From Euglena gracilis (taxonomy: Eukaryota): 64,000 nucleotides of DNA. Where the stretch lies: assembly GCA_039621445.1 (NCBI GenBank), contig CP154954.1, positions 46,417,847 to 46,481,846 of the forward strand, given 5' to 3'. The translations under genes were made by a program, and so were the position numbers. Shown one piece after another: positions 19,100 to 63,931 of this stretch. Below the pieces are notes generated by a model. It did not search any database. It was not told the DNA's origin and saw only the letters and a program-made list of their open reading frames with translations. Numbering within the stretch: the stretch's first letter is position 1; each line of letters begins with the position of its first letter.

Positions 19100-19964
19100 T
19101 TTTCATTCTGATGCAGGAACCAGATAGCCGCCGGGAGGTGGCACCCTGTTTTGGGTCGCCAGCATATCTTTTTATGGGGTCTGATGTGCACTCTCTTGAG
19201 AACTCTCCGAAGTCTTTGGTTGAGGGATTTTTCCCTCCCCCCCCCCCGTTGTCTGATAATAAATTACTGACAGAAATTTTTGGTGCTTGTCTGGCACACC
19301 AAATTGTGCCGGCTGCTCTATTTAATTGTTTTATGCCTGTTTCCTCCTAAATATGTGGATTGTCTGTGCCTGTTCAGATCAGTCCTAGATATGCGTGCTG
19401 GAGTCTGAACGCAACTCATGGGTTGTGTTTTTGGGGGTTTGACAGCCTCAAAATTATGAAATCTCTTTTGTCTCCTTGTCTGAACAATGGCTCTGGCAGA
19501 CCCCATCAACTTGCTTGCGTGAAACCCCAATTCAAAAGACGTGGTTCATTCAAAGAAGCACCCCCAGTTTTAATGGTAATTCCAAAAAAATCAAAAAACT
19601 AAAGAAATATAAATTGAATTCCAAAATAAATCAACAACAAAAATCAGTCAGGTAAAATCCCCAGCCCAAGGCCACGGTGCTGGAGCTGCAGGTCTGCAAT
19701 CACCAGCGGTCATGCAAATATGAGGCCAAGCGGGGGTGGTCCTGGCCCCTCCGAGGAGGGTCATGGCCACCGCTGAACGTCTGGCCCAAATCAAACACAA
19801 TGCAATTGTTTAACGTTTTGGGGCCATTTCCAGGCGGAACATATCGAAAATGCTTTCCCACTCCCCCCCCCCGCCCGCCGCCTGCACAAACAAATGAAAT
19901 CGACACCCCAGATGTCCCCCGCCCAACCACCGCGGGGGAGGGGCGGGGGAGGGGCGTGCCGCCG

Positions 19965-26351: not shown

Positions 26352-29304
26352 ATGTCGCACATTGAGGCGCTCCTGGCCCGGACCGCCTCCGACCTCAACC
26401 ACCGGGCGTGGCAGCCGTGCTTCGAGGCCGTCAGCAAGGGTCCTCCCCCAGCCCTCTCTCGCACGGCACCAAAGCGGAGGAGGGGCCGGGCCATCCCAAA
26501 CAACGTCCCCACACCCCCATCCCGGGGGGGGGGGGGGCTGCTTTCCCGCATTCAAAAAAAATTGGTCAGTGACTTTTTGAATACCAGTCATCCACTCCTC
26601 CCCCCTGAGGGCCGGTCACTCTGGCCCTGGCCAGAGTGAGTTAAGCCCAAAAAGATGTCCCTCTTTTTTTGTATAAAATACATCTCAAAAATGGATGAAT
26701 TGAACACCTGCTGTCCTAGAAAAAGATAAGCCCTCAAGCCCATAGTAAGGAAAATGTATATGTATATGCCACCTGGGCCCTTTTTTGTTGTTCAGCACCC
26801 CTCACTTTTTAGGTGTTAAGCGCCCATCAGCCCCCTCAGGTGCCCCCCTCTGCAGGCACCTATGGCCGACCAGGGCCGACCAGGGCCGACCAGGGCCGAC
26901 TATGATTTTCAGGACCCCCGTAGGTGGGGGTTCCGACCAGGGCCGACCAGGGCCGACCAGGGCCGACCAGGGCCGACCAGGGCCGACTTGCATGTGATTG
27001 GCCGACCGAAGGGGATTGGATGAAGGAATTCGGCAGCTTTCCCTCTGGACCAAGCACCTCTGATGATGCTGGGCGGTGCTGGGCGATGCAGGACGATGCT
27101 GGCCCGGCAGCATCGACCGCGGGTTACCGCGGGTTTCAGGACTGTCATAGGTGGGTTGCCGACCGCAGCCGACCGCAGCCGACCGCAGCCGACCGCGCAA
27201 CCTTTTTCTGATTGATGTCATTTTTTCAGTGACAATGAGGAATTTTATCCCAGATGTTGAGATTTTTCTGGTTCATCTGGCTCATGTTGTCACTTTTGGC
27301 TACTTTTGGCCGCTTTTGGCCATTTTAGGTCGCTTTTGTCCCCTTTTTGGCCCATTTGTCACCATAATTCACCAATTTTGACCTATTTTGACCATTTTTG
27401 GCCACTTTTTGCGCACTTCTTGTAATTTTGGGCCATTTTGTCCTGCTCTGGGGCCATTTTTGACCATTTAAAGCCATTTTCGACCTTTTTTTTTGTTATT
27501 TTGCCCATTTTTTTGGTCTCTTTTTGGTCCAATTTGACCATTTTTGAGCATTTTGTGCCAGTATATTGTATATTTTGAAGAACTCAACCCATTTTTGGAT
27601 AATTTCCCCACAAATATCCAGTTTTACACCCATTTTGGCCATTACTGATCAGTTTTTGCTAACTTGGGGGCCATTTGTCACTGATTTGGCAAATATTGAG
27701 CTGATTTGGGTCAATATGAGCATATTTTATGGTATTTTGGCCATTTTACGCCCTTTTGGTAATTTTGGGTTATTTTTCACAATCTTTTTTTCTGTGACAG
27801 ATACCCCCCCCCCCACCTATGGCCGACTATTTGCCGACCAGGGCCGACCAGGGCCGACCAGGGCCGACCAGGGCCGACCAGGGCCGACCAGAGCACCAAA
27901 ATGGGAAGTGACCAAAGGTGCCTGCCCCTCTGGACAAGCCCCCCCCAGGTGCCGTTTATTTGTATCGCTTCAATATGGGCAATTATTAATTATTGGATAG
28001 CCTCACCCCAGATATAAATTGCCTGTGTTTGGGTGCGATTGTGCTATCAATTACTTACAACATGGTTGCAGTCCAGATTTTTCTGGGGTGTGTGATTCCA
28101 ACTCTGGTAAACAGAAATGAGCAAGAGGAGGCACAGAACAGGCTGCAGTTTAGTCGGGTGCCGACCCCACCCCGGGGGGGGGCTTGCCTGGGCAAGCACT
28201 CCAAGGCACAAGTATCCAACCCCGGAGGGGGGGGGCACACGGCCAAAAGTGCTTGGCAGGCACTCCGGCGCCGAAGGCGCCGGAAGGCTCAAAAATGGCC
28301 GATTTTCAAGGAAAAAAGGCCTATTTTCTGAGATAATTTCCTGGGCACAGGCCGAAATCAGACCCCGGGGGGGGGGGGTAGTGCCCGCCTGGGCAGGCAC
28401 TCAAGGGCACTCACCCCGGGGTTGGTAAAAAAAACAGCCTGGCACAGAGCAGGCTTCTGTTTAGTAACTCAGAGCCCCCCGGGAGGGAGGGAGTGAGTTC
28501 TGGCAGGTCCCGGGCTGGTGGGGGGGAGACCCAAAGGTCTTAACTAGAAGCCCAGCACACAGCTGTGCCATCACGTTCTGTCAGTGCTCTCTTTCGGATG
28601 TTTTTTTTCAGTATGACAGTGCTTTGGTTTATAATGTTGATGCCCTGGGGGGTGAACCTGATCCCGATGGATACTTGGGGGTTTAACCTATTGTCCTGCA
28701 AAATTTTCGTCTGGTGTGGTCAGTTGGGGTGCAAAAATTTTCGAGCCCAAACCAACTCCCAAGACGGCCCCCCTCTTAGACGGCCGGGAATGCACACTTC
28801 ATTTTTGGTGGTTTTTTGCGCACCTGCGCATTCTTTTGTGACCAAGTGTGTCGCCATCACTTGACGGGGCGGCCGACCCGTCAGCTGAAACCCCTGGTAC
28901 CAAAATGGGTACCACTGCTTTCGACCCCCGGGTTTTTTTTTCTGGGCAAACCAACTTATTTCGTTTTGAAAATGCCGGTTTAGCACCTCCGCGGACCGAG
29001 GGAAAACCCCCGTCTGCCGAAGTAGGTGCGACACAAAACACTGTTTTACGAGGACGAACCCTCGTCAGGTGAAGGCGTTGTGCCTGTCGCTGTCCCCCCT
29101 GTTTTGTGGTGCCGAGTGAATGCGCAGGTGCGCATTCACCCCCCTCCCCGTCCCGGCCTTTTCCTGAAGTTTTGGACGGTTATTGTGGCTCCCGGGGATG
29201 GTTGTGGGAAGGGGGTACCGTGGTCTCTGCAGTTTGAGTGGAGAGGAGGTTTTTTTTTATTTTTTAGTTTGTTTTTTTTTTTATTTTTTTTTCTTTTTTT
29301 TCCT

Positions 29305-34317: not shown

Positions 34318-35094
34318 TGCAAGCACATTGGAGGCCACAATTCATATTTCAGGGCACGGTCTATCTCAAATTAAATAGTGTGACTGGCGAAAAAAATTCT
34401 GGTTGATTGATTGATTGATTGATTCTGATTGGCTCAAAAGAATGGACACCCGAGTTTGGATTATGAGGAACCAGAATCACCTCTCACAAGCGTGGTGGAA
34501 GGCAACAAGACGGTCGGGCATCAAACATACAGCACACGAACATGTTGCAGACTGAGCCCGCAAAGGTATGCTGCAAAAAAAGCCATTCCGTCTGCCACCA
34601 GAGCCACCACCTTTTGCAATCCTGTCAGTCACAGACACTCAATCAGGACCAGATTTGGGCTCGCTCAGGATTTCTTTACCACAGGGGGGGGTCCTGGGCT
34701 CCACTCAAAACCTAGTATTGTGGAGTTGTCAACCCCCCCAACCAGGAGAGGATTGGTGTCCCACCCCTCCCACTGATGGGCATTTCATTTTCAATGCCAC
34801 CGAAAGTTCGTTGATTCATAACCGACGGAAAATGTGAAGGCTCATGCCCACCAAAGACGTTCATTTGTTGAAAGTTACATGAAGTTGGGGTCAGAAGGGA
34901 AGCCCATGGCCGCAGCCATGAGCATACCAAAGGCTTCAGTGTACCGGAGTGGGACCCCTGACAAATCCTCTCAAGTTTTCCCAATCCACCGGCCGTAGTT
35001 GCTCAACCGCATTGACATCTGAGCCATTTTTTTTATTTGCCCGTTTGATTATATTACTCACCATTTCATCTTGAAAGATTGCAGTTTGAGGGCC

Positions 35095-44573: not shown

Positions 44574-46862
44574 TTGGGAAATGAAGACGTACTTTCAGTG
44601 ATCGAAGTGATGCCTAGGGGGGGGTGACAACAACTCCGAATTGAGATGTATTTGGGCAACTCCAGGGATGCACGAGAAGTTTTTCGGTTTTGAGGTCAGT
44701 GGTCCTGGTCACCCCTCATTCCTGGGGGTCAAGGTGGGCAGTGGAGCGGAATACGGACCCCCTCCCAGATGTTATTAGGTTGGTCGGGCCCACCCGTCCC
44801 TCCTAAGAAGAAAACTAAAGCCATGAAATATTTTCTTCCGCTGTTGAGCGTCAGAGATGGGTTGTGGAAATCGCAATTCTTTTCAGGTTTTTCACATCAC
44901 CTTCAAATTTCGCTTATTTGCTCATTGCATATTCTGTGGCAATTAAAATTATGTTTTGTGAATTTTCAATGTTTTATCCTTCTTTGTCTTTTCTTGGGGC
45001 TGATTTCATTTTTTCCAATAATATTTTTTAAACATATATGCGAATTTTTTGCTTTTTTTTTCAGTTGTTCATGAGCTCCCAGGGGATTTTTCTCTGCAGA
45101 AAAACGTAATCTGGGTGATTTTTTTGCAAAGAAGTTTTTGAAAAAGACGGTTGCTTTTCGGCATACGATGTGTTTTCAAAAATGAAAATTTGAAGGAAAA
45201 AACAGTGTATAATATATCTCTCTGTGTCGTTTTTTTTTCCCCCAAAAGGAGTGAGACAGAGAGGGTTTTTTTTGGAAAAGAAGTGCTTTTTGAAAATATT
45301 TCTTCGCCATATTTGGCAAAAACCACGTGAAAAATTGCAGATTATTTTTTGTTTAATTTTTTTGGAATTAAATGCAAAGCCTATTCCTCCAAAATCATTT
45401 TTTTCAGTTTCCCATTTTTTTGTTTGCTTGTTTTTTGTCGACGTTTGAAAACAGTTATTCAAATCCAATGCATCCATAATTTTCGTCAGCCCCATTTTTG
45501 AAAGAGCGATAAGAAGTAGGAGGAGCAGGAATGAAACGAATTTTTTTGTTTTAATATTTTAGGGAAAAATATATGTCAATTATTTTTTGCTACAATTCTA
45601 CAGCAAACAGTGTGGGAAAAAGGGTAGGTGAATTTGTGTAATTGTATCTTTTTTGGTGACCAACAATTTTGGTATTCTTTCCAAACTGAATTGCCGCTGG
45701 GTTTCTTGTTTGTGTTTAGTATCATCATGTTTCCCTGGAGAAAAATGAGGGGGGGAAGTGCATAGCATAGCAGTTTTCGGTAATTTCTCAAGAAAATCAG
45801 GGTTCTTCCAACAAATTCTCGCATTTATTTTCAATTTCGGCTGGCTCTTAACAGTTTTGAGGGGGGGGGTCAAAGATGGGCCTCCGATTCCCCCACCCCC
45901 TTTGTGTTTTTGTCTGGGAGGGGGTTCAAACCCCTCCTCTGGTTTCCCTTATTATCCCTGACCCCCCCACAAAAGTTCTGTTCATGTCAGCAGGCTCTAT
46001 TTATTCTGATCTTTCAGAATATTGTGTCCAAAATGTGTAAGTTCCTCAGGGCAAGGAATCCCTTAATCTGGAACCCGGGGCGTCCAGTAGCTTTTTTTCC
46101 CCCCGCCAACACCTTCCAGCTGGGCTGTGGACCCCCCCCCCCAGGGTGGTCTTTCCACCCCGGCGAGTCTGGTCTTTCCAGCCCGGCGAAGCCAGGCTGG
46201 ACTGACAAAATTTCGGCCCAAAGCAAAAATAGGTTTGAATAAAGGTTTCAAGGTGAGTATCCAAAATTTCGCTGAAAATGCCAACAAGCTGGGTTTGGGC
46301 TTTTTTGAAAGTTTTTGGGCACCAGCTGTGCCCAGCCCAGTATTTGGTTGGACCAGACGCCCCATCCCTAGTGGGGAGGAGGCCCAGCCAGCAACTGGCT
46401 GGACACCCCTCTTTAAATGGAACGACACTTCCAGCCATATGGGCTCCCTTTCCCTTAGTCATTGCTGCCTTTCCAACCCCCACCCCCTCAGTTGGACAGA
46501 CCCCCTTCGGAAAGAAAGCATGTGACGACGACACAAAAGAGCGTTCAAGCTGTGTTTGCTTCTGAAAAATTCACGTGTGGATCCATGTATGCCGCCGAGT
46601 AGGGAGTTTCTCAAGGACCCCTGCCTGCCATACTGTTTGGGAGGGGTTCAAAAAAAATCCCGTGATATTATATTTGACGAATTTCTGTCACCTTCCCCGA
46701 CGTGATTATCGTTGAAATGTCCGTGCGCCAACAGCAATGCTAAAAATGCACCGGTGAGCCACCGGTTTTGCAAACTTTCACCCATTTCCAAACGTGTGCC
46801 TCCGTGTGTTTTTTCCCCTTTGTGTGGCCCCCAAGAGTTTATCTTTCGTCTTTCGCCCACAG

Positions 46863-49800
46863 GTGCCCTGCAAAGCTGAAGCTGCGCACCTCACAAATGG
46901 ACATCTTCTGCTGCCCCTTGCTGGCCGCCGAGACCGTCCGGGAGGCAAAACTGCAGGCGGTGGTGGTGGCGGCGGCCACCAACGTGCGCAGTGGGCAGCC
47001 AGCCATTGCAAAAGCCGAGGCGACGAAGGACCTGACATCGGACGAGAGAAATCACACGTTGCGGGGGTGGTCAGACTCGATGTTCAGCAGCACGTCTGAG
47101 GTGTTTTACGACCTGCGCCGGCGGGGTCTGCCGGAGCAGAGAATCATTTCATTACTGCCGGGCCTGCAGCCGAGGCTTGTCAAGAACTATTTCGCCCGGC
47201 GGGGCGCTGGAAAGAAGGTCCAGAAGCCTGTGGTGTCCGCACGCTCCCGGGCATTCGCCTTGGGCCTCTTCAGCCAGTATTGGGCCCGATGGATGGACGG
47301 TGAGCTGCAGCGCGACCAGTGCTTTCTGCAGAATCAAAATGTCTTGATTGGAACCTCCTGCCACTCCTGCCTATGGGAAAATACAATGTGTTCAGGTTAT
47401 GGCTAGTATTTGGTCAGAAGTAAGGCCGAAGTCGGGCCGGAATTTCAGCCTAACTTAGTCCTAAATCCCCATAAACAATCGTGACCTTGCCCCATTCTTA
47501 ACGCTGACCCTAACCCCAACCAGGGCGGTCCATAAGGGACGGATTTTTTGTTTAAGGACCGCCGTGTTAGGACCGCCCTTGGGCATAAGAGCCGGTCGAT
47601 GGTCCAGGGCTCGAATGGGGGCAAATATTGAAAGGTTGAAAAACGCGTTCATTGACGCTTTGGGTGAATGAGCAATGGTCCAAGATATCATACCAAGATA
47701 CCAGAAATCATTTTTTCCCCCTCGAAGTCCACCCATTTTATCCAAAACATGACCAGTTTTCCAGTGGATTTTTCATCGAATGTGCTGGGATGGGAATGGT
47801 CTCATGATTAAACTAAGTTAAGGACCGCCTTAACCTACCCCGATTCTACACATAATCAAATAACTGCCCCTCCCACGCCCCAAGGTGGCTTGGGGAACCA
47901 AGGGAAATGCAATAAAGCTCAGTCGGCCGAAGGTCCTGTTGGACAAACCAGTTGGACCTGGGAAGCTCCAATTAAACCCCACCCCCCACTTATTACCCCC
48001 CCCCACTTACAAACCCCCCCCACTTACCAGGTTTGAGCTCTAGTAGTTCTGAGCTCTTAACGGGACTTGCATGTAATGGAAGGCCGAAAAGACCATCATT
48101 GCAAATTTCGTGTAAGTTGTAAATTGTAAATTACGCGAACTTACAGCCTTGCAATTTACAATGACTTTCGGTGATTTTACGGGAATTTCTGAAATGTTAA
48201 TGAAATGTTTACCTCCCCATACACCCCACACCCGTTTTATTGGTTTTTTTTCCCGGATTTTGACCCATTTTCGACCCGAACTCTACAGGTTTCGGGCAAA
48301 AACACGGCGCTGGGGGGGGTCGAAGACAGCTCATTTTCGGCGCAAAAACAGTTTTTTCCGCATCCGTGAGGCCAAAAAAAACATGGCTTTGGGCATTTTT
48401 TTTGATTTTTTCGACTTTTTTGACCCGGTTTTGACCCAAAATCAATGGGTTGGCGGCCCAAAACGGGAGGCTAGCCGGTCGAAAAACGCTCATTTTCGGC
48501 TCAAGAACAGTTTTTCCGGGTCCGGGAGGCCAAAAAACATCGTTTCGGGCAAAAAAATTCGATTTTTTTTGACCCCAAAATCACCCTAAGCCCATTGGTT
48601 TTCGGCCAAAAACAGGGGTCTGGGGGGGGGGGTCGAAAAATGCTCATTTTCGGCTCAAAAACACTTTTTGGGGGTCCGGGAGGCCAAAAAAAACATGCTT
48701 CTGGGCAAAAAAAAATTCGAGAAATTTTGAGAACATTCATTTTTTGACCCCTCCCCCCCCCCGAAAACGGCCAAGTCGGCCAGTGGGGAAAGTGCACAGA
48801 ACGGCCATGTTGGCCGAAAAACGACCGTATCTCGGACTGGGCGGGGAGTTGTGGGGATGTCAAAATACCGGTAGATGGGGCATTCCAAGGGCTTCAATTT
48901 AGGTCTCCGGATACTTCCTTTGATTTTGCATCATTTTCGAGATATTTTGAAAATTGATTTTTTTTGGCCCGAAATGGCAGAGTCCAAAGGGGGGGGGGGG
49001 GCTTAAAAAAAGGGGGGCGGGCCAATCCTACCCGGTTTGGACCCCTTCGCACGTGAATAACTCAGGCCTGGTGGGGAGTTCGGGATCAAATCCAGGTGAT
49101 TCGGAAACTAGAAAGCCAGTCGCTCGTGACTGGAAAAAAAATTCCGGGAACCAGGCCGGGATCATGTGATAATCCGTCGGTTCTCCTGGTGGCCCCGACA
49201 CGGGGGGGGGGTCGATGGGGGGTTTTCGCCAGGAGGAAGCTTCGCTCTACCCATAAAGGGATAAGAGCTCAGCGATAAACCCCCTGGGCCGACCAACCAA
49301 ACTGGATCCTATAACCCCCCCCCCCCAGGAAGAAAAATGGAAATCGCCGGGAACGATTTTTTTCGATCGCCCGGGAACTGATTTTTGGCTATTTTTTGAG
49401 ACCGATCATCATCAAAAATGTCATTTTTGACTAAATTTGCCGAAAACTGACAATTTGGGGGTGTTTCGGGGTCATTTTGGGGGGGTCGGATTTTCACCAA
49501 CAATTCCGGATCCCATAACCCCCCCCCCCCCACCTATAAAACCCCCCACCCCCTTCGGCCGACCAATCAACCCGGATCTTATGAACCCCGGGGGTTTATA
49601 AGTAGGGGGGTTTAAACCCCCCCCCAAATATGAGACACCGGTGTCTTATATTTGGGTGTCAACCAATTTCGCCAAAGGGTGCCTTATATTTGGGTTTCAG
49701 GTGGATGACTGAGGGGTGTGTAATATTTGGACATTTTTCCAGCAAGTATGTTGTTGTGCTAATGTCCTCGTACCTTCACATATATTTGTACATACATGTA

Positions 49801-52800
49801 TACATACATTGTCTGAACGGCGTTCATCACCACTTGCAGATTGGTCGCTTTCTTGTTGTTCAGTTGCTTCTGACCAAACACCTGTGATGGATTCCAAATT
49901 TTAGTCCGCTGTCGGACTTGCTGCTCCACACTCACTGTGGAAAGCCTTTCATTAGGGGGGGGGTGTCTGAAATTTGGAGAAGTAGGTGCCAGCCCAGGGG
50001 TGTCTTATATATGGGGGGTGTCTTATATTTGGGGGGGTTAGTATATTACGCGAAAGATTATATCATGTTTGGTTGGCTGCGGCCGGCCAGCCATGGCCGA
50101 CCGCATGCAACCAAGCAATTTCATCTCAACTCACTGGTTTGATTTTTGATCGGCTGGCCTTGGCCGGCCCTTTTCCCAAACAGCAGATCGTCACATCTCT
50201 CACATCTCGCTTCGGCTGCAGCTGGTTGCACTCAGCCACAGCTCCAATCAGTTATTGGAAAAAATCAAAAATTGATGACGGTGTTTGAAGAAAGCAGTGT
50301 GAATTGTAAAACAGGGTCTATCTGCCAGATGACTCCCCAAGGCCACCGAGTCATCCAAAGGGCCCAATAAAAAGAATTCAAGCCCGTGCAACGCTTTATC
50401 CCATGGTACCTGGCTTTCTGGTACCTTCTCGGCTGGCAAAAGTTACGCCCTAAATCCGCAGCCTCGTTTTTTTTGACGCGTTTTCTGCCAGTTTCAGCCC
50501 GTTTGGGCCAAAATTTTTTTCATAATACCTTGAAAATGAAAAAACCAAACAATTGTGAAATCAAACAAAGCTCTGAGAACGCTTTATCTAACTGTATTTC
50601 GGTTTTCCTATAGCTCTTACCTCGTCCCATTTCCGGCCGTTTTTTGGGCACAAAAAATTGCCGATTGCGAAATGCCAAAATTCTCAATAATGAAGCAAAA
50701 TCAAACAAAATGGCCAGAAATCCGAATTGAAGCCCTTAAAAGGCCTTATCTAACAGTATTTTTATTTCCCCGCAACTCCCTGCCTAGCACGAGATATGGC
50801 CAATTTACGGCCCAAATCAGCGCTGCAGGCTTTTGCTTCTGCTGTTTTCTGCCATTTTGGGTTCAAAAAATTGATTTTTCCATTAAAATGGTGTCCCGGA
50901 CCCCCACCCCACCCACCCACGAGGAGTCCAGCCAGCACTTTTTTCCTGCTGGCTTGTGCCCCCCCCCCCTCCCACTGGGATCTTTAAGAAACCCCTGATT
51001 GTGGCCGTTGCGCACAGGTTACTCATTGCGCATGTGAGACATGGACATTCAAATAGCAGATGTATATGAATATATGTCCTGTGGGAGGTGGCGGATTGAA
51101 GATAATAATGAAAGGGGTTTGAGCAGCGCAGTGTCCAGAAGCTGGATTAGCGGTTTTGAAGTATTTGGGCACTTGGGAGGGAGGGGTGTCCCAATGGGCG
51201 GTGGGTCTGTCTGGTGGGTTGCAAACCAAAACCAAATGTGTCAGTATGTCCGCTTTTCTCTGCCATCGTTAATTCAATTTCATTTTTTTGTTTTCTCAAT
51301 TCCGAACGCTCACCCAAAGTTATGTGCTTCAAATCCAGGGAGAGAAAAGGGGGGGGTGACGAGCTTCTTTAAATCACGTTTTGGGTCCCCAAAAGTTTTT
51401 CCTTGGCTTCGATTTCAAGGGTTTGTTTGCGACCAAGCACCTCCGATGATGCTGGCGATGCTGATTTTCTGGACACCAGAGGTGGAGTTCCAATACTGGA
51501 GACAATGCTGGACGGTGCTGGCGGGTTTTTTTTTTTGCATATTTAGAACAATTAACCCATATTTAGGATTAATGAGCAACCATTTCCCACAATTATTTTC
51601 CCCCATTTGGCCTTGCCCATTGGGGCCATTATTTCTGTATGTGATAATTTAGGTAAATATTGGGATGATTGGGATCAATATGAACAAGTTCATGGCATTT
51701 GAGGCTGGTTTATCCCATTTTTGTAATTTGGGGTCATGTTTTTGCAATCGTTGTGGGTATTGTTGGCCATTTTGGGTCATTTTGGCCGCTTGGGGGATTT
51801 TTTGTGGTCAATTTGGCTGCTTTGGGAGCTAGTGGATGCACACGTTGAAGTGGATGCAGTGGATGCAGACGTTGTTGTCGTTGGAAGTACTGGATCTGGA
51901 ATTACTGGAGTGCACAGGGGCGTTTGTAGCCTCGAGAGCATCCACTCCAGTGTCATGCATTCTGGTGCTGCTAATTGAATGGATAGCGTTTGGTCAACAC
52001 ACAAAAAGGGGTGACACAGAGGGGTCGTATGCCAAAAAGTTTTGCTGCCTTCGGTTCCCTGCTTGATGTTCCTGGGTCTCATGATAAATGCGTGCATGTA
52101 CGTAGGAAGAGGCTCTAGAGCCTCCTCGAAAGACCTCTAACGACGTATGAGGCTTAGAGTCTTCTGGAACGACGGTCAAGGCGGATCTAGAGCCTGCTCG
52201 AGCGTCGTTCAAGGACGTTTGTGGAGGCTCTAGAGTACCCGGACCATTGGTGTGAGATGATATTCAAGTGGTTATGTTGCACATCTGCACAACGGCCACG
52301 CGGATTTATATTTCTTTTTAAATTACATGTCCATTGCATATTTTTGCAATAAAAAAAAACTAAATCTAAATTTTAAATCTTAAATCTAAAAATCCAAATT
52401 TTCAATCTAAATCAACGTGCCTTCTTTTAAAAAAAAAAGTTTGCACCTTCCAAGGGGGTGGGTGCTATGTGCAGGCAACAGGGATTTTTTTTTAAGTTTT
52501 GGACCCCTGGGGGGGGGTCCCGGCCGAGCCCCCCCCCCCCAGGTCAGGTCGAGTGGGTCCCCTGCCCACTTGACCACTGGGGTTTGCTTCTATTTTTCGG
52601 CACGAAGCGACAAGATTTTTTTTGACCCCCCACCCCCAAATGGGCCCCCAGGGGGTGGGTGGGTGGGTCCGGACCCCCCCTCCCCCCGAGTCCTTAAAAA
52701 ACCCCTAGCAGGCAGTGGGGCATTTACAACCCCGGGGGGGGGGGGGGGCGGGTTTTGGGGTGGGTTGCGCTCTACATAGCACACACACCCCGGCGATGAA

Positions 52801-55800
52801 GGGTCCGAACATGGCCATTTAAAAAAAAAATTGGCTTGGCATCGGAACCCAAACCAATCCCGGCAGGGTGGGGGCTACTATGGGCAGGCACTCCATAGCA
52901 CAAGGCTTCTCCTGTCCCAGAGGGTGCCCTGTAGGTCGTGGAGTCGTGGAGCCATTGTTCCGTCCCACGCTGGCTTGTTTGTGGGGCTTTTATTCAGCCC
53001 CCTCCCCTCCCCCACCCCCCCCCCCCGGGAGCCCGGGAGGGTGACGCAGAGCTCGTATTGCACCGCACAGACAAGAGTGGTCCTCCCCCGGGGTTGGCAA
53101 AAAGGTCTGGCGCTTCTTGCACAGATACACAACAAAAAATAAATTTAAATATGAAGGTTTGTAGCTATTGCGCAAATGCAATGTGATTTTGGGCAATGAT
53201 CACCCACATTTAGAATTTCACCTTATTAAAAACATTTTGCAAATGCACAATATTTCTAATTTTGCAATTAATGTTTTCCATTGCGCAAGGATCCCTTCAA
53301 TGGAGTCCACTCATTTCATTATCCAGCGCTTTCAGGTTCATGCGCAATGGACCTTGGGAGACCCGTACCCGCAGACCGCAAAGTTCCAAGTTGTTGCTTT
53401 CATGCCAGGCTGTGGGGGCGTCCAGACATACCAATGTGGATTTTCCTGGACCTCGCAACTCGGGATTGGGAGAGTGAAAAAAAAATTGGAGGCTGCGCAT
53501 TTGCGCAGCGCCCTAGTGATTTCCAACATCAAGTATGACTTGAGCGCTTAAGCAGCAGCCATAAACGGGTTGGACCCCACAAGGGGGACAGTGAGACCTA
53601 CCTGAGTGACGAAGTGGGACCAAGATCCACACCCAGGCTGCCACCGCCCTGCTACCCAGAGATGACCCCAGGATTCATAGTGTCCACACAGGATATCACA
53701 GGGTTGGTAGTTGGGGATAGGGTCAGGGCTTGGAATAGGGTTAGGGTAACACTAACATTTTGGGCTGAATTTGGGCAGTTTTGTGTATTTTCGGCCTGAA
53801 AAAGGTTCGAAGTCAGGCCTATATTTTTGCCTGGTTCAGTCCTAAGTTTGGTTTTAAGCCAAATCCGAACCCTAAACCCTAACCTCATCGATGACTCAAA
53901 CTTCCCAGGTTTCTGCGGGGGAAAAAACAAAATCGACGGTTTTTCCATGACCAAATAAAAAAGTGCAAGTTGACGGCTTTACAATGATGTAGCTAGTCCA
54001 ATCCCCTTGGCAGACTAGTGGGATCACCAGGGGCGATCCCACCAATTTATGGCTGCAATTTATGTGCATGGTACAACCTAACCAACCTTTTCATATGAGA
54101 ACCTGGCTGGTTTTTTTCAAAGTGGAAAGTGACCCCTCAGGATGACTGGAAATAATTGTTTGGTAGGAAGTGACGGTAGGATTTCCATAGGCACATAAAG
54201 TCTCTCGTTTTGGGGGGGGGGGGCATTTGGTTCAAAGATCAGAAAGGCCTGTCAGGGAATATGGGCTCAACCTAAAAGGAACGGTGGAGTACCCTCTGGC
54301 CCAGCCCCAGTCGCTGCGGTACTTGGCCCCCATCCCCTACATCACCCCCGCCACTCCGGAGGAGGGCCACCTTGAGGCCCTCGTCCGGTGCATCGCCGAC
54401 CGCCTTCAGGAGGAGGGCTGGCTCGACCTGGACAAGCTTTGGCCAACGGCGCAGACACTGTGCAGCGAGAAGAAACGTATCACTCACCTCGTCCGTGACA
54501 TCTTCCAGCGGGCCTTCTGCAGCTACGCCCAGGCTGTGCACGGATACCATATGTGTGGCAGCCTGGCCCCGACGCGTTCACGGCGGAGGAGGACCAGACC
54601 ATTGTCAGTGCTGTGGAATTGCAGAGTAGACCGATCGACTGGAAGACGGTCGCGGCGCTGCTGCCCCACCGTACCGCTGTAGTGGTGAAAGACCGATATA
54701 AGGTGTTGTGTCGCAGCTTGGCCAGCATGACCTATGGCAAGGCAGCGTCGTTTCCAGATGAGACGCTGTGGCGGCAGCAGCTGCTGCGGGGCTTCTTCTT
54801 CCGCCACCGCGTGCCGGTGAACCACCCATATTGGGCGGACCTGCTGGGTGCCGATGTCGGCCCTGTTATTTGCCGGCTCCCATTAACAGACGCTGATAAC
54901 GGTGCAGTCGATGAGAAGCCTCTGGTGATGATGACTGTTTCCTCCACAGGGGCTTCATTTTGTATGTTTTTTTTTCCATTTAATTTTCATTTTTATTGAA
55001 AATGCGAGCGCTTTTGTAGGTGTATTGAGGACAGCACAAACCATGAAGCTTTTCACATGGAGTTCCAGTTCAGCAGTCTGGTGGGTCAAAGTGGTCAAAA
55101 TGGTTCAAAAAAATTTTTTAAGGGAAGCCTGAAAATTTATGAGACAAAGCGCCGAGAATTTTTAAAAAAGTATCCTCTGATCAAAATGATAAGAGGATAT
55201 ATTTGCAAGGGGGAGGGGGCCAGACCCCCCCCCCATGGGGGAGGGGGTCGGACCCCTTTTCGGACGGGGGGGGGGGGTACGGAACCCCCCGGAAACCCAA
55301 TAATTTTTCCGGCCCCAAAAATTTTTCCGGCGCAAAGCGCCAGAAATTTTTTTGCACAGGGGGAAGGTGGTTCCGACCCCCAGGGGTGGGTTAGGGGGTT
55401 TGCCAATCCAAGAAAAAATAGCCAGCTTTATTTTATGGCAGGGATATTTTTTGTACAATTTTCTTGTACAAGGGGATTTTTTCCCCAAAGGGGCAATTTT
55501 CTCCATGTAATTTTTCACTCATTCTTCAGATTTGTCAGTCTTGTTTCATTCTTTTTGATTCAGAGATTTTTTCTTTTCTTTTCTTCATTCGATGGATACG
55601 CAAAAATGCTCAAATTAGTCTTTTTCCCCCATGTTTTCACGTTTTTATCTTTAGAGAAAGGCTCCTCCCAGGAGAGTCGATTTCACACCAGCAACCTTTT
55701 GGCATACAGATGACAGTGGGCGTATCCTTCTTTGAGCCTGGCAAGGAAGCCCCCACCCAACGTGAAGCTGGAAGAAGACGCTGTGCACAAAACCGTCCGC

Positions 55801-58797
55801 ACTGCCCGCCGCGTGAGTGGTGACCGGAAGGGCAAGCGCAAGGCCAGGGTGGGTTGGGGGGCAGCTTTGGAGCGTCACATTCGCACCTTGCATCGTTGGG
55901 CTTTTGCCCACGTGGCAGTGTCAGTTTGCCTCCCGCAGGCCAACAGGCACAAGGATTTCTGCAGTTTTCATTCTAACCCCGATTCTCAGCATATCATATT
56001 TCGCATTTGAATGTGATCTCTATCATACCATTGCTTAACAACTGTCCCACCCCTGGGGGGGATTGACTGGTTTTCTGGCCAAGACCCCCCCTCCAGGGGG
56101 TGGAGTAGGCCCGAAAATGAAAAAGTGACTGGCCTGTGCCGAAGGATTTTTTGGTGTTTTTTTCTTAGACTGTTTGGCAAAAATGTTCACTGCCTCCTCC
56201 TCATTCAAAACTCTTTCACCCAGGCATTATCTCTTCACAACGAGGGACAAGTACGCCTGTGAGTGTGGGATGTTCATCCTAAACACAAAGAATGGAATTT
56301 GAAGTCACTTGCAAGGCGAGTCACGCAAAAATACCACGAAGGCAAACAATTCCAAACGGCTTCCGTGAAGGTTCCCTTTGCTTTTTGTAAGGATTTTGCC
56401 TTTTGAGACATTTGTGGTTCTGAGAGATGTTTCTGATTCAAGCAATGCAGCAACAGGAAGCAAAATGGCATCTGGAAGCGCTTTGTGCCTTGCCAACATA
56501 AGCGCATTCGAGAGTGGCCGATCCCCCCCCCCCCCGGGAAAAAGTGATTGACTGGTTTTTCCAGAGTAGAAAGTGACCCCCCTCCCCCCCCCCCTGGGGG
56601 TCGCCAAGCAGTGGTATGATCTTCATTCCTTCCAGAAAGGTACAGTGTCCAAATAAGCACCCTAATCCCTGGAAGTTTGAAGATGTGTTTGTAATGTAAT
56701 TCCCGAATAATTTAATTCCCGAATTATTATTGAAAAGTTTGCCAACGTTTGCGTTGTTAAGGCAAAAGTGGCACCTGAAACAATTGTGCTTTTGCGCAGG
56801 GGGGGGGAAATGCAACTTGCATACTTTGCATTTTTTTGCATAATCGGCTTTTCCCGAAATTTGCATTTTTTTGCATTTTTTTGCATTTTTTTGCATAAAA
56901 TATTTTGCCCTGGAAAAAATTTTTTGTAGTTGGTTGCCATATGTTTGGATTTTTTTGCATTTTTTTGCATTTTTTTGCATAAAATATTTTGCCCTGGATT
57001 TTTTTTTCAATTTTAGGCAGCAAAGCTCTGTTATATTCCAGCTTTTTCTCAGGTTTTTCATGCAAGTTGCATTTTTTTTTGCATTTTTTTGCATTTTTTT
57101 GCATTTTTTTGACTTGCATAATTTGAAGGGCCAAGTTGCATTTCCCCCCCCCCCTGTTTTGCGGAATTTTTCGGGCCTACCTACCGCCTTTGGAGACTTT
57201 CAACGCCGCTTCAACCACAAATCCCAGCATGGGAGCACTCAAATTCACCGTAATTGATTGCACAATCAGTTGCAAATGGATGTGAACAAAATCGAATCTG
57301 CGTTTGCAGAATTGTGTGCCCGGTGCACGGGTGTTCAGAAATCAATGTTTGCCTGGTTGTACAATGATATAAGGCCTGGTTAGTTGCACATTTGAAGGCT
57401 CACTGGTTTTTGGAGGGCAATTGTTGCTCTTTCTGGGCTCATCCCCCTCGATTCCCATCATTTTTGGTTTTTAAGCGCTAACCTTGGACAACTTCGCATT
57501 GTGCCAGCTTCCAGTGCACTCATCTTTCATGGTGCCCCAAACTTTGGAACAATTTGTGTTATTTTGCAACTTCCGTCGATAGAAGGCCATCAACCAGGAG
57601 GCCAAGGAGTAAGACAAATCACTTTAATTGCCCAGAGAAGAGAAAAGGCAATAGTTTCCTCCTGCAAAAAACCTCTGCAAAATGGCTTCTGCACCCTGCT
57701 GGTTGGATAAGCAAGCTTGTTTTGAGTCGATTGAGGGTGCGCAGGCAATGCTGTTCTTAAAATCCCATCCTCTCCATCTGCCCTTCGTATATTCTCTTTT
57801 TTTGCATCACACCCAAACACGGCATTCCTCACACGTTTGGGACACACATATGGAACCTCCGGATCCCTGCCACGCTGCCACGCCAGGCTTCAGTTGGCGG
57901 TTGCAGAGTCCCGCCTGCCACCCCTCGGGGGGAAGTCCCCCACCCACCCTGCGAGCGGTGCCGCCCCCCGCCCCCAGCCCCGAGCCGGAGGAGAGCCCCA
58001 CACCCTCCAGTGTGAGGGAGCCGGCGGGGCGACAGCCGGAGGAGGAGGAGGAAGGGGGCGTGGAGGAGTGGCGGCGGCTGCTGGCGGAGTACGAGGCGGC
58101 GGAGGAAGCCCGGCAGTCACGTATGCATGAGTGTGTTGTGAGGAATCAGCTGGATGTGTTACCCCAAACGCAACGCCACTGCTCGGCAGGTTTGAAAGGT
58201 CATTGCAGTCTGGTGATATCTCATGCGGGGGTTGAACACAATTTGGCATAACAAATTTGAGCGGGAATGCAGTGATATTTTTGGAGGGTTTGCTCAATGT
58301 ATTTTTTCCAATATGCAACTATTTTCGATGCTTTCTCAGGCTTTTATTTATCAGAGCCAGGGGTTATTTTAGTTGTGGACCCCCAGAAGGGGAGGGAGGG
58401 TAGGGTGCATGGGTCCGGCCGCCCCCCCCCCCTGGGGGGTTCCCCCAGGGGCCGGTGGTATGCTTTTCGGCGCGAAAGCTGAAATTTTTTGAAAATGGTG
58501 CTATTTTTGGCATTTTCGCGATTTTGGCCATTTTCGGGGAAATGGAGTGGGTCCCCCCGGGACCCCCCCCCAGAGGGACCCCCCAGGAGGTGGGTGGGTG
58601 GGGGCCCCCCTCCCCCCCCCAGTTTTAAAAAAAACCCTGATGAGAGCACCAATTGCTTGAGGGTGTTTCAGGATTCTGGCTTTTTTTTTGCTGCAGAATT
58701 TTTCATTGCACAATTTCAAAGCATGAAGCCCCCCCCCTCGTATGAGGAATTACATGAAGTTCAGGAAGGTGAAGAATTGTGGATGAAGTGGTCTGAG
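46863..58797 (+). CDS. Multi-exon gene encoding a Myb/SANT-domain protein (3' end unresolved)
   Basis: Exons 46863-47313, 54257-54526, 54571-54924, 55717-55848, 57907-58120, 58340-58354, 58645-58662, 58697-58797 join in frame. FTAEEDQTIVSAVELQSRPIDWKTVAALLPHRTAVVVKDRYKVL (54577-54710) fits the Myb repeat pattern. Confidence 0.75.
47973..49614. mobile_element. TA-flanked pogo-like MITE interrupted by a Helitron
   Basis: taaacccc..cactta / tataagtaggggggttta ends; repeated cact(t)ataaaccc motif. Confidence 0.65.
48027..49275 (-). mobile_element. Solo non-autonomous Helitron, same family as the last array unit
   Basis: Minus strand reads ggtttA|TCgctgagctctta...aagagctcag...aaacCTGG|Taagtg: TC start, CTRR end, A|T target, no duplication. 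The empty site rebuilds the host motif cacttataaacccc. Colinear with 14109-16876 but with few 163-bp repeats. Confidence 0.85.
49613..50040. mobile_element. TA-flanked pogo-like MITE (GTGTCTTATATT motifs)
   Basis: taaaccccccccc aaatatgagacacc / ggtgtcttatatttgggggggtta; shares its left TA with the previous MITE. Confidence 0.75.
51001..52299. mobile_element. TIR element with GTGGCCGTTG ends, unclassified
   Basis: gtggccgttgcgcaca / tctgcacaacggccac inverted ends; duplication unclear. Confidence 0.55.
52479..52707. mobile_element. hAT-like MITE
   Basis: cagggattttt...aaaaaccccta; duplication gcaggcaa/gcaggcag. Confidence 0.8.
54527..54570 (+). other. 44-nt non-conventional hairpin intron
   Basis: TAC|gcc CAGGCTG tgcacggataccatatgtgtgg CAGCCTG gcccc|GAC; removal repairs the frameshift between ORFs 54227 and 54553. 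Confidence 0.85.
56797..57156. mobile_element. hAT-like MITE with TTTTTGCA internal repeats
   Basis: TIR cag(g)n-aaatgcaacttg / caagttgcattt-(c)n-tg; ttttgcg duplicated on both flanks. Confidence 0.85.
58358..58639. mobile_element. hAT-like MITE inside a coding exon; predicted non-conventional intron 58355-58644
   Basis: cagggg...ccctg; duplication atcagagc/atgagagc; homologous to 36529-36871. Excision by the N3/N5 rule gives RQSR-FYLS|EHQLLE in frame. Confidence 0.75.
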
Positions 58798-59191: not shown

Positions 59192-60188
59192 CAGACATTC
59201 ATTTAGTGTGGTACACCGAGGTAGTCATTTTGTGGTTCACTGTGGACACCAAAAAATTTTTTCGTGGTTCACGTATGGACACCAAAAATTTTTTTGTGGT
59301 TCACCTCTGGGCAACAAAAAAAAGTTTGTGGTTCACATGTTTGCTGCGGCAAAAACTCGTTTGTGTGCCGCGTGCACCGCGTAAAAAATTTTGTGCCGTG
59401 GCAAACTTCGCCATGGCGCACTGAGTGAAAGTCTGAATCCAATGTTGTGGCGCCATGAATCTTTTTTTTAACAAGAGGGATTTGACGGTTGGGGGACGTT
59501 TCCATTCATCACCGTGGATGCATAGCACGAATGGCGATTCCCCAAGGAGTTCGGCATTTGATTGAGGAGGCCAAAAAATGATTGGGTCCACATCCTCCAC
59601 CGTGAAATTGGCCGTGATTCCTCAGACGCCGGTTCGGGTGTGAACCTGGAGTCCCCTAGAAACGATTTCAAAAACTGTGTCCCAGGCACTGGCTTCACGC
59701 CCGAACCGGCGTCTGGGACAGAGTTCTCAATATAGTAGTGGTGGACTAACCCGAGCCCTCTCAATTGACCCTAGGGTATGGGTGCAACACACCCCAGCCC
59801 TAACCCTAGCAGGGGGGGCATTGGCACACGTACCATCCAGTGCGCGTTCATGCGTTGTACGTACGCCTCAAGGGGGGACGTCAGGTTGTCCGGCTGGGAG
59901 CAACCCTACATGTAATGGGGCTCTGCATGTGCGGTATGAGGGAGTGGCGACCCTCCTCCAACCACAGCGGTGGGAAGTGATTCCCTGCCACGCTTTACGG
60001 ATTGAGCCGAGGTTAAGGTCCACAATGTGGCTGAGGTGTCTACACATCAATCAAAAAAATTTGTGGACACCGAATATTTTTTTGTGGTTCACCTGTGGAC
60101 ATCAAAAAATTTTTGTGGTTCACCTGTGGACACCAAAAAAAAATTGTGGTTCACACGTCTTTTGTGAACCACACTAAATGAATGTCTG
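59192..60188. mobile_element. hAT-like non-autonomous element
   Basis: Perfect 21-bp TIR cagacattcatttagtgtggt / accacactaaatgaatgtctg; duplication gggggtac/gggggtag; subterminal tgtggttcac repeats. Confidence 0.9.
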
Positions 60189-60658: not shown

Positions 60659-63600
60659 TTAGGCGGCCGAATTCGCACTTAAGGATTTAACTTTTTATTT
60701 GCGCACTTGCGCAAATTTCTGATTTTTTTAGTTCTTTTTTGATTCGGTTGTATGACCCCGGGAGGGTTTGAAAACACGTTGACAAGAGCGTGCAAAAAAT
60801 GAGCAAAATTCTGTTTTTGGCGGTGTGACCCCAGGGACTTTGGCGAAAAATGGTGTTTTTGGGGAGTCCGAAAATGGACTTTGTATGTCGAAACCCCCAG
60901 GACCTTGCCGGCCAAAAGGGAAAAAAAAATGCTAAAAAGCAGCACAGGAACGGGACCTTTACTGTCCTTGTTGTTTCTTTCGGCTGTGTCCCCGGGTGTG
61001 CCCGAGCTGCCGGCGGTGTGCGTCCTGGGTGTTTGTTTTGCCGGACTGCTTTGTTTGCGACGCCTTGGTGTGGTGTTTTTGGGCTGTTTGTTAAAGCGTG
61101 GGGAGGAGGTGCCGGGGGGTGTGGGTGCGGTGTGACCAAGCGGGAAGGCGCAGTGAGAGGAAGGCAAGTGTGAGGTGTTGGGCAAGGGAAGCACAGGGGG
61201 GAAGAAATTGGGTCCGCAGGGAATGAAAGGGACGGGTGTCTCCCACCCGGCTTATGCCTGGGATCTGTACAACCAGTTGTGTGGCAAAGAACCCAGCGGA
61301 AGAAGCCAAACACTGGAAGGACAAAATTGTGTTTATTTGTGCAAATGCGCGCACCAAGATGTTTAGGTTTATTTGCGCATTCGCGCAAATAAACATAAAC
61401 ATGTCCTTCAAGGATTGGGCTTTGGTACCCATGAACTGACGCTGTTGATGAACGGCGTGACAAAGGAGCTGTGGGTGTGCAGACCAACGGGCCGTCCAGT
61501 TGGTGGGTTTGTCACACTGTTTGTCGACGGCGTCAGCTTCTGGGCGCAAATGCGCGCACAAAAAAAATTATGTTTATACGCGCATTTGCGCAAATGCGCA
61601 AACAAACATGTCCTTTGTTCATTTGCGCAAATGCGCAAATAAACACAGAGAAGAACGGTGTGACAGAAACATGACCTTCAAACACCAGCAGCAGATGTGG
61701 TTTATTTGCGCATTTGCGCACATCACATTGTTTGTGGGCGCAAATCGCCAAATAAACTGCGTGAAGAAACTGCACAATTTATATCTGGTTTATTTGCGCA
61801 TTTGCGCAAATAAACCACGTGATGCGCGCAAATGCACAAATAAACAACCAGTGGAGGAGTAAAAAGCGACTTCATTTGGCCCTCCTTCTGCCACCCGTAG
61901 TGGCTTCTGAATGGGTTCAACCCAAATGACCACACCGTCTCCTCCGGCACATGGTGTTATGGTTCCTTTTTTGAACCATTGGCAGGTCCCACAAAAGATG
62001 GAGACAGCGGATCTCCTGAAGATGGGTGCGCAGCCACCCAGTAGCAGTGCACGTCCACCGGCACCAATTTTTGGGTCCCAAGGGCCCTGCCACTGGCCCG
62101 CGGCCTCGGCTCCGCTGCTGCAGCCACATCAGCTGCTGATGCTTCAGCACCCACCAGACCGGCATCCACCTCCCCGGTGCAACAACACCCAGATTTAGCG
62201 GCCACGTTATACCCCACAACCGGGGCGTGAGACTGGGGTATGACGTGGTGCCAGTGCATGGCAACCAGCAGCCGGAGAAAGGTAGCCCTCAAACACCCGT
62301 CATTTTGGGTACAAGGAATTGTTGAATCTTTACCACTGGATTGGGCGCATCACACCTGTGGGACTCACTCCCCCCAAATTATGCACAAAAACTGGTGTGT
62401 TTTACGTATTTTAAGGAAATTGCTGGAGAAAAACCAGAAAACGGACTCCGGCCTGACACATCCGGGGTATTTCAGGTGCCAAATTTTGACTTCTTGTAAC
62501 GCAGTACAGTTGCAGAAAAGGTGTCGAACAGTCACAGGTCGTTTGCACGTAATCAAATCATGATGTTTAACTGCCAAACAGATGACGCCAAAGGAACAGG
62601 CCGTGTGGGCCAGGTCACAGCAGTACAAATGTACACACATAAGCCAGGCAAATTTTGGCCAGTGAGATGCCGTGTTCCAGCGAGCATTACACACTGCCTC
62701 TCACCACAAATTTCATCGCCATGTAATCGTGGTCAATGGTTGGCGTGTGGAATTGCGTTCGCCAGCCGTCACAAAGGAGGAGATGTTATTGCAAAACTGA
62801 TGTGTGTTGGTGCCCGCATTTGCGCAAATAAACAAACTTTGTTTGTGTGTAAGGCTTGCCGAAACGCATCTTTTGAAGCGGTTTATTAATTGTTTATTTG
62901 CGCATTTGCGCAAATGCGCGCACAAACGTAATTGTGTTTATTTGCGCAATTGCGCCCACCAAACCTCGTACGGTCATGGTCCTCATTGGTGTCTTTTAAC
63001 ATGAAAAAAAATACATGTTTATTTGTGCATCTGCACAAATAAACATAACTTTGTTGGTGTGCGCATTTGCGCAAATGCGCACACCAACAAATTTGTTTGT
63101 GGGCGCATTGGCGCCCACAAACACGCCATTTTAACGTCGTGTTTACGTTTTATTAGCGCAGATGCGCCCACAAACACAATTGTTCTTATTTGCGCAAATG
63201 CGCCCACAAACACACATCAGTTGTGTGATGGCTGGCTGACGTAGTCTGTCGGTGTGTGTGATCTAATGAGGCTCAGTGTGTTCTTATCGGCGGTGGCAGT
63301 ATCACAGTCAGTTCAGCCAGCACGTCAGCACCATTTCCAAGTGTCGTAACAAGGGGTGTGTGCCTCTCTCCTGTTTGACATACAACAGCACAAGTCTCAC
63401 CCTCTGCCCTATTTGCGTCAATTGGTAAATAACATTTACACCAAACTACTGGGAGTTAATACCCTCCAATAGAGGGTTGTAACCAGGCTGTATTTTAGTC
63501 GGGTGCCGACCCCACCCCGGGGGGGGGGGGGTGCCTGCCTGGGCAGGCACCCCAAGGCACTCCAAATCCGACCCCCCCGGGGGGGGGGGGGGTAGGGCAC

Positions 63601-63931
63601 ACGGCCAAAAGTGCCCTAGCACAACCCCGGCGCCGAAGGCGCCGAGGAGCCAAAAATGGCCTATTTTCAAAGGAATGTGCCCGGGCACAGGCCGAAATCC
63701 GACCCCCCCCCCCCGGGGGGGGTAGTGCCTGCCTGGGCAGGCACTCACAGGCACTCCGGACCCCCCCTCCCCCCGCCCGGGTTTGGTAAAAAAACAGCCT
63801 GGTTGTAACGGTTCATAAATTGTATTCCGTGTGACAGGGTACAGAGCCCAGGAATTTCGTAGAATTTGCGCATTTGCGCAACTGTGCAAATTCTAAAGAA
63901 AAACCCTTAAGTGCGAATTCGGCCGCCTAAG
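60659..63931. mobile_element. Unclassified TIR element ((C)TTAG termini, 5-bp duplication) with dispersed TTTGCGCANNTGCGCAAA palindromes
   Basis: Perfect 26-bp TIR ttaggcggccgaattcgcacttaagg / ccttaagtgcgaattcggccgcctaa; tgcca on both flanks (left terminal C missing); roughly 18 palindrome copies. Confidence 0.85.
63484..63801. mobile_element. hAT-like MITE, CAGGCTG family, nested in the previous element
   Basis: caggctg / cagcctg; perfect 8-bp duplication gttgtaac; homologous to 28139-28441. Confidence 0.92.

Follow-up and report, generated by a model that had tools for sequence, protein, structure and literature searches.

The subject of this report is a 44-nt segment (54527-54570, plus strand) in a 64,000-nt stretch of the Euglena gracilis genome (contig CP154954.1, positions 46,417,847 to 46,481,846; hereafter the window, with positions counted from its first letter). 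The segment separates the coding parts of two overlapping, out-of-frame open reading frames (ORFs) and is most probably (roughly 0.85) a short nonconventional, hairpin-defined intron, here called intron 2, between exons 2 and 3 of a Myb-like gene with a predicted product of about 371 residues. Its anatomy, the repair of the frame upon its removal, the residue-exact match of the joined product to two homologues and the insert present in close copies of the gene were observed directly, and removal from the RNA is what we infer from them. An intron of this structure-defined type behind an apparent frameshift had been proposed in a first-pass annotation of the same DNA, and that proposal is strongly, if indirectly, supported by the colinear homologues, the full agreement with the published intron rule and the insert shared by the close copies.

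Anatomy of the segment and repair of the reading frame

The upstream ORF (54191..54682, plus strand), the sensible part of which ends ...VRDIFQRAFCSY, is in the frame of the FCSY motif, and the downstream ORF (54499..54999, plus strand), containing DAFTAEEDQTIV..., is in the frame of DAFTAEED and the Myb-like domain; the two overlap by 184 nt out of frame. The full sequence of 54527-54570 is gcc-CAGGCTG-tgcacggataccatatgtgtgg-CAGCCTG-gcccc. Three nucleotides (N3, GCC) precede the 5′ arm CAGGCTG (54530..54536, plus strand), which was identified by reading the sequence and by an inverted-repeat count; five nucleotides (N5, GCCCC) follow the 3′ arm CAGCCTG (54559..54565, plus strand), and the next exon begins with G. 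Read from 54555 as GTGGCAGCCTG, the 3′ arm also pairs over 11 bp with 53634-53644. Both segment borders have the form C|G, with an exon C followed by a segment G at the first and a segment C followed by an exon G at the second.

Removal of 54527-54570 (44 mod 3 = 2) gives ttc tgc agc tac | gac gcg ttc, that is, FCSY|DAF in frame. The dinucleotide CG is repeated at 54526-27 and 54570-71, so that the junction is free to slide by one base in either direction. All of the anatomical statements of the first-pass annotation, namely the out-of-frame overlap of two exon-like ORFs, the perfect 7-bp stem in N3/N5 register with C|G junctions and the exact repair of the frame by 44 nt (FCSY|DAFTAEED), were confirmed by this direct reading, as was the identity of the 7-bp ends with those of the transposon-like copies at 28139 and 63484 considered below, both of which have the form CAGGCTG...CAGCCTG.

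A single instance of the inverted repeat CAGGCTG-N(5-35)-CAGCCTG is present in the window, and 100 dinucleotide shuffles produced none; the CAGGCTG heptamer itself was found 21 times against 8.08 expected, a count that no shuffle reached (0/100). The isolated 44-nt RNA folds into a single hairpin of -22.2 kcal/mol (z -2.22), and equally good folds were obtained for 7 of 200 shuffles. An Rfam scan of the whole window gave no matches.

A predicted three-exon Myb-like gene colinear with distant homologues

An exhaustive HMMER search for homologues, with exon 2 as the query and 1.84 billion representatives as the target, returned four proteins at E <= 0.001; one of them, P0004 (E 5e-4), is a repetitive protein and was discarded as a low-complexity match. 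The gene was delimited by comparison with P0002 (428 amino acids) and P0003 (459 amino acids), which are distant homologues with 35-42% identity. Exon 1 (46897..47313, plus strand; 139 codons) starts with the ATG at 46897 and belongs to an ORF (46744-47406) about 7 kb upstream of intron 2, residues 52-191 of which align to residues 3-143 of P0002 with an E value of 4e-24. Exon 2 (54257..54526, plus strand; 90 codons with FCSY at the C-terminal end) aligns without gaps to residues 143-232 of P0002 (E 8e-17), and exon 3 (54571..54999, plus strand; 142 codons and a stop), the predicted C-terminal end of the protein, aligns to P0002 from residue 233 onward (E 1e-22). The Myb-like domain is located in exon 3 at about 54574-54702 (PF00249, E 2.7e-8; PF13921, E 4.2e-7).

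The exon 2|exon 3 junction thus corresponds to residues 232|233 of P0002, which reads FQRVFCSYDGFTPADD (FQRVFCSY-DGFTPADD) across this point; P0003 reads FQRVFCSAEPFTEEED (FQRVFCSA-EPFTEEED), and no residue is gained or lost in either protein. When the translations of 46897-47313, 54257-54526 and 54571-54996 were placed in one alignment, they tiled P0002 and P0003 with neither junction gapped or overlapping. Since exons 2 and 3 tile the homologues at residue resolution, exactly 44 nt must be removed, give or take the one-base slide. The predicted intron 2 is singled out by this position-exact homology and not by its motif.

Intron 1 (47314..54256, plus strand; 6,943 nt) is likewise predicted to be nonconventional, with the ends gac-CAG-tg-CTTTCTG ... 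CAGAAAG-gc-CTG-tcagg | G, which comprise N3, CAG/CTG, N5 and a purine together with a 7-bp second helix beyond a 2x2 mismatch. Its removal would give ELQR|EYGL, without a gap relative to P0002 and P0003, and opens a frame of 331 codons.

Further searches were made for proteins and contigs related to the gene. Word-indexed protein searches restricted to “longer” lengths gave no match among 88 candidates for exon 2 and none among 416 candidates for exon 3, and the 385 pattern matches of a metagenome contig scan with exon 2 included none that was confirmed. A “near” protein search, like the HMMER search, did return relatives.

A very abundant repeat lies inside intron 1 at 48222-48795, with a summed contig word depth of 1.0-1.5 million in two DNA runs; the depth of its single-copy neighbours is about 20-100, and many contigs break in the repeat, leaving T-rich loose ends (...TTTTTTCGAT).

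Close copies of the gene and mapped sequencing data

Two unspliced read-through ORFs on other contigs, P0001 and P0005, are 87-88% identical to the window gene in exon 2 (P0001, 88%). Where the read-through of the window is FCSY-AQAVHGYHMCGSLAP-TRSRRRR, those of P0001 and P0005 are FCSY-AQAVHRYHMGALVGGSLAP-TRSRRRR and FCSY-AQAVHGCHIGALVGGSLAP-IRSRRRR, respectively. Both follow the pattern FCSY-AQAVH...GSLAP-(T/I)RSRRRR, with the insert at the same position as in the window and with the same frame shift; both stem arms fall within the translated ends, which are conserved, and the middle differs and is four codons (12 nt) longer. This comparison was made on translations, that is, at the protein level and not on DNA. 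Exon 3 is open in the close copies P0007 and P0008, with 83-87% identity (P0008, 87%); P0005 and P0008 probably belong to one contig, the longest contig being 1931 for both. An insert that is kept in diverged copies with intact exons on both sides behaves, as judged from these translated frames, like an intron. The sharing of a frame-breaking insert by close copies whose neighbouring exons are open argues against an assembly error as well as against a dead gene.

Two DNA contig sets from different years (X1 and X8) and two raw RNA runs bearing the same species label (X20 and X24) were mapped on 46500-55100. The DNA contigs cover the region, and the resulting tables list no indel past 54207 and no letter change between 54228 and 54604; this lends weak support to the assembly, because a missing table row does not prove identity. 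The substitution 54604 G>C was found at a depth of 19.2/55.2 in X1 and 30/30 in X8, and 54620 T>C likewise; these variants may represent alleles or a close paralogue. Among the joints listed for the mapped runs (183 more are not listed), none was at 54526>54571.

Comparison with published nonconventional introns

The rule 5′-N3CDG-/-CH′GN5-6|R was derived in E. gracilis from knock-in mutagenesis (Nomura et al., PNAS 2025, PMC12501133): CAG and CTG are both essential, the 5′ spacer is exactly 3 nt, the 3′ spacer is 5 nt with one additional nucleotide tolerated, the next exon starts with a purine, and pairing just inside the motifs is required. Fully synthetic 50-bp introns with these features were spliced in vivo, so that the anatomy described by the rule is necessary for splicing in E. 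gracilis and was sufficient in the synthetic introns (PMC12501133). Nonconventional introns constitute 71.8% of the introns of E. agilis, and 61.2% of them obey the rule (PMC12501133). For E. gracilis, a consensus with CCAGG at +3..+7 and CCTG at -9..-6 has been given, together with minimum nonconventional intron lengths of 36 and 30 nt, a <60-bp class of 40 among 4,495 and 146 among 11,656 nonconventional introns (~1%), and a length of 41 nt for the shortest of 11,527 GT-AG introns (Gao et al., BMC Genomics 2024, PMC11170887). Release of full-length circular RNA has been reported for tubA introns (cited in PMC11282704 and PMC12501133).

Every element of this rule can be found in the 44-nt segment. 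GCC precedes the CAG at 54530-54532, which is complementary to the CTG at 54563-65; GCCCC follows, with the purine G at 54571; and GCTG and CAGC are perfectly paired inside the hairpin. The E. gracilis consensus is likewise present, as gcCCAGGctg...cagCCTGgcccc|G, with CCAGG at +3..+7 and CCTG at -9..-6, and the segment lacks conventional spliceosomal ends, starting with GC and ending with CC. The much longer intron 1 (47314-54256) obeys the core rule as well.

Relative to the introns of PMC12501133, the segment shares the 3-nt spacer, CAG/CTG, the 5-nt spacer, the purine, the inner pairing, the lack of GT-AG and the short length, and no structural difference was found; the removal of intron 2 is here a prediction. 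With the short introns of PMC11170887 it shares the positions of CCAGG and CCTG, the terminal pairing and membership in the <60-bp class, whereas its 44 nt exceed the tabulated minima of 36 and 30 nt. As in tRNA and archaeal bulge-helix-bulge introns, an RNA helix unites the ends, which are not GT-AG, and fixes the cut sites; however, the euglenid fold is unlike that of tRNA or self-splicing introns (PMC6221363), and the predicted intron 2 falls outside that class. Since short synthetic and natural introns have already been published and the rule is followed in full, the kind of intron to which intron 2 belongs is known, and the segment is a clear-cut, unremarkable example of it and not a new type of element. 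The first-pass annotation had considered it useful as a minimal substrate for a still uncharacterised splicing machinery. The trans-acting factors are indeed still described as unknown (PMC12501133), whereas the value as a minimal substrate has been superseded by the synthetic 50-bp introns spliced in vivo and by the tabulated natural introns of 30 and 36 nt.

By this rule, the ends of the intron would pair in the pre-mRNA, CAG at +4..+6 with CTG at -8..-6, and GCUG/CAGC together with more pairs farther in would prolong the helix. The nonconventional machinery would then cut 3 nt before CAG and 5 nt after CTG, ahead of the purine, and the exons would be joined as ...UAC|GAC....

Alternative explanations

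Several observations weigh against the intron. The homologues P0002 and P0003 could come from intron-less genes rather than from spliced mRNA, and it is from translations and not from DNA that the intron ends are known to be kept in P0001 and P0005. When the exon flanks were included, the fold became unremarkable: in two folds, equally good energies were reached by 34 of 200 and by 29 of 200 shuffles. The RNA runs X20 and X24, of which about 5/100 and 56/100, respectively, were read, gave essentially no reads on 54249-55100, and therefore showed neither the spliced form nor the retained one. The variants at 54604 and 54620 alter residues of the Myb-like domain (V>L and L>S, by reading the codons). 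Two further points of this kind, the number of chance matches to the rule and a match inside exon 3, are treated in the next section.

The lack of RNA reads on the gene, the two amino-acid-changing DNA variants in exon 3 and the failure of the searches at “longer” lengths to yield a near-identical protein with the joined form would also suit an unspliced insertion, either a transposon remnant or a hairpin-forming indel, that has frameshifted the gene and left a pseudogene or a truncated protein. This explanation is unlikely. The flanking ORFs are open, and with the introns removed about 330 residues are colinear with P0002 and P0003; copies that have diverged by 12-17% in amino acid sequence keep the insert, with exon 2 open in P0001 and P0005 and exon 3 open in P0007 and P0008, which is to be expected of an intron and not of a decaying frameshift; and the insert has every element needed for nonconventional splicing.

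The 11-bp pairing of the 3′ arm, noted above, brings in a longer candidate. The alternative 5′ arm CAGGCTGCCAC (53634..53644, plus strand) lies inside intron 1 and is the perfect 11-bp complement of 54555-54565, exceeding the local 7-bp stem, and the rule fits there too (ACC-CAG...CTG-GCCCC|G). If the 3′ arm paired mainly with this sequence, 53631-54570 (940 nt) would be removed and exon 2 skipped. Such skipping is very improbable: exon 2 is conserved and follows the homologues colinearly, use of an arm within intron 1 would destroy the 3′ end of that intron, and no ORF of at least 40 codons ends at 53630 in the required frame. The arm at 53634-53644 may be part of an alternative 940-nt intron, a solo terminal repeat or a product of chance, the last with a roughly estimated likelihood of about 1 in 100.

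The sole other frame-restoring option noticed is a 26-nt intron at 54536-54561, which has a GT start and an AG end and restores the frame (26 mod 3 = 2) to give FCSYAQA|PGPDAFTAEED. Its splicing in place of the 44-nt segment would be more improbable still: it leaves six residues that are absent at this point from P0002 and P0003, it is below the 41-nt minimum of 11,527 E. gracilis GT-AG introns (PMC11170887), and it is too short for a C-rich polypyrimidine tract. Finally, an assembly or sequencing error, for example slippage in the short TG run (TGTGTG, 54552-54557), is scarcely credible as the source of the apparent frameshift, since a slip of 1-2 nt would still leave about 14 residues extra relative to the homologues, the same out-of-frame insert with another loop is present on two other contigs, and, as a weak point, the X1 and X8 tables are free of indels and letter changes over the intervals given above.

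Look-alike hairpins and the limits of the rule

A strict short match was defined as CAG with at least four more paired bases, CTG, the N3/N5 spacers, a purine and a length of at most 120 nt. Counted over both strands, the window contains 12 such matches, whereas 100 dinucleotide shuffles averaged 5.5 and reached at most 17; a motif match alone is therefore weak evidence.

One of the matches lies in exon 3, 170 nt downstream of intron 2. This look-alike (54740..54773, plus strand; 34 nt), agg-CAGCGTC...GACGCTG-tggcg|G, has a 7-8 bp stem and a folding energy of -13 kcal/mol, and it stands in a place where homology implies no removal. Its excision would change the reading frame upstream of the LLRG..HPYW block common to P0002 and P0003, and it should therefore be retained. 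It does not have the extended CCAGG/CCTG consensus, and P0007 and P0008 have other residues at the place of its CAG. The apparent retention of this match suggests that the published rule may not suffice in all contexts.

Further strict matches of 41-101 nt are found on the plus strand at 18822-18862, 19828-19889, 39948-39999, 57592-57669 and 59620-59720, and on the minus strand at 33273-33317 and 34639-34699; among these hairpins there may be genuine short nonconventional introns belonging to other genes. The part of the window from 17.8 to 22.9 kb is rich both in ORFs and in CAGGCTG.

CAG...CTG elements and a possible transposon origin of the intron

Two copies of a MITE (miniature inverted-repeat transposable element) with CAGGCTG/CAGCCTG ends are located, without assigned strand, at 28139..28441, where the 8-bp flanks GCACAGAA/GCACAGAG match at 7/8 positions, and at 63484..63801, with a perfect 8-bp duplication (GTTGTAAC, 8/8); the two copies are 74% alike. 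A survey of the window for CAG...CTG inverted-repeat pairs with a stem of at least 7 bp and a span of 20-1500 nt yielded 174 pairs. In five of them the flanking 8-mers differ at no more than one position, against about 0.07 expected by chance on our own estimate, and none of the 174 has such direct repeats of 9-12 nt. The five elements (26853-27924, 28139-28441, 38623-39223, 59192-60188 and 63484-63801) fall into several families by terminal sequence, so that CAG...CTG elements with 8-bp duplications are represented in the genome by several families. The control of this duplication test with all inverted repeats was not relied on, being overwhelmed by palindromic, poly-T and poly-G repeats.

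The combination of an 8-bp duplication with CAG-type ends is the signature of hAT-type transposons. A Pfam search of 113 of 181 ORFs (at least 110 codons, low-complexity filtered; 203 such ORFs in all) revealed no transposase and no hAT match; a few of the other 68 were covered by the scans that gave the Myb-like and pogo-like matches. Cutting the five elements at N3/N5 in silico opened no convincing ORF, so that for none of them was intron status shown; removal of 38623-39223 gives a 291-codon frame, which is a GT microsatellite.

The ends of intron 2 equal the terminal repeats of the MITEs at 7/7 nucleotides on both sides, and four of these seven belong to the general intron consensus. Among the matches listed for the first copy, blastn of the MITEs against the window found only 28139-28441, 63484-63801 and internal sub-repeats, and nothing at 54527-54570. 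The intron flanks, GCTACGCC and GCCCCGAC, match at 5/8 positions, which would occur by chance in about 3-6% of cases (own estimate) and is not significant. The likeness to MITE-like introns thus consists in the terminal inverted repeats, the 7-nt ends shared with the two MITEs and a length of 44 nt that equals a 36-nt element plus 8, whereas intron 2 differs from MITE-like or hAT elements in lacking interior similarity, in its 5/8 flanks and in the absence of a transposase among the 113 ORFs. With only the 7-nt ends shared and no interior likeness by BLAST, the claim of the first-pass annotation that the segment is an internally deleted MITE of the CAGGCTG family was not upheld. Descent of intron 2 from a CAG...CTG transposon is plausible; its putative descent from the CAGGCTG family is unproven.

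The MITE-origin hypothesis of nonconventional introns has been proposed before (Milanowski et al. 2013, PMC3935182; PMC12501133; the 2024 review PMC11282704). “TSD-like” (target site duplication-like) repeats at intron junctions (PMC11282704), a direct repeat eight nucleotides long at a newly acquired intron (PMC4770533) and direct repeats at 84.4% of introns (PMC12501133) have been described. The sum of the two spacers, N3+N5 = 8, equals the length of the target duplications of the CAG...CTG elements, so that a cut at N3/N5 takes away one duplication's worth. Because excision in this register removes the element together with eight bases, the reading frame that existed before insertion would be restored for any target. 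It is a tentative suggestion, to which we give somewhat less than an even chance, that the N3/N5 register exists because the introns descend from CAG...CTG transposons with 8-bp duplications. Nonconventional splicing would then amount to the “precise excision”, at the RNA level, of one transposon superfamily, and the window would contain free copies with intact duplications side by side with old ones, now introns (44 nt and 6.9 kb), in which the duplications have decayed. The literature search, with supplements and subscription journals outside its scope, found no paper naming a MITE family with these ends or tying N3+N5 to an 8-bp duplication.

Other features of the window

Three ORFs at 40924-42621 (minus strand) carry weak pogo/Tc5-type signatures (DDE_1, E 0.005; HTH_Tnp_Tc5, E 6.5e-5; BrkDBD, E 0.003) and are probably the decayed remains of a pogo-like DNA transposon that has no relation to the CAG...CTG elements. 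The region 14800-17000 is a tandem array whose period is about 162-163 nt and in which CAGCGCC recurs at 15605, 15767, 16091, 16256, 16418, 16581 and 16743. The sole match of the 113-ORF Pfam scan, MobA_MobL at 15903-16550, lies in this tandem repeat and is regarded as spurious.

Significance

The predicted intron 2 is a further example of a class forming about 70% of the introns in the sequenced Euglena genomes, the cis-rule of which was genetically defined in 2025. Genes of this kind can be annotated correctly by reading raw sequence, because the rule and homology together resolve a three-exon gene without RNA data. The duplication and register side result and the look-alike control are worth more than the intron itself. 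The free CAG...CTG elements with 8-bp duplications, taken with N3+N5 = 8, give the MITE-origin hypothesis a concrete, testable form, and the pairing, in one predicted transcript, of a 44-nt hairpin that would be spliced with a 34-nt look-alike that should be kept offers a natural control for the missing part of the rule.

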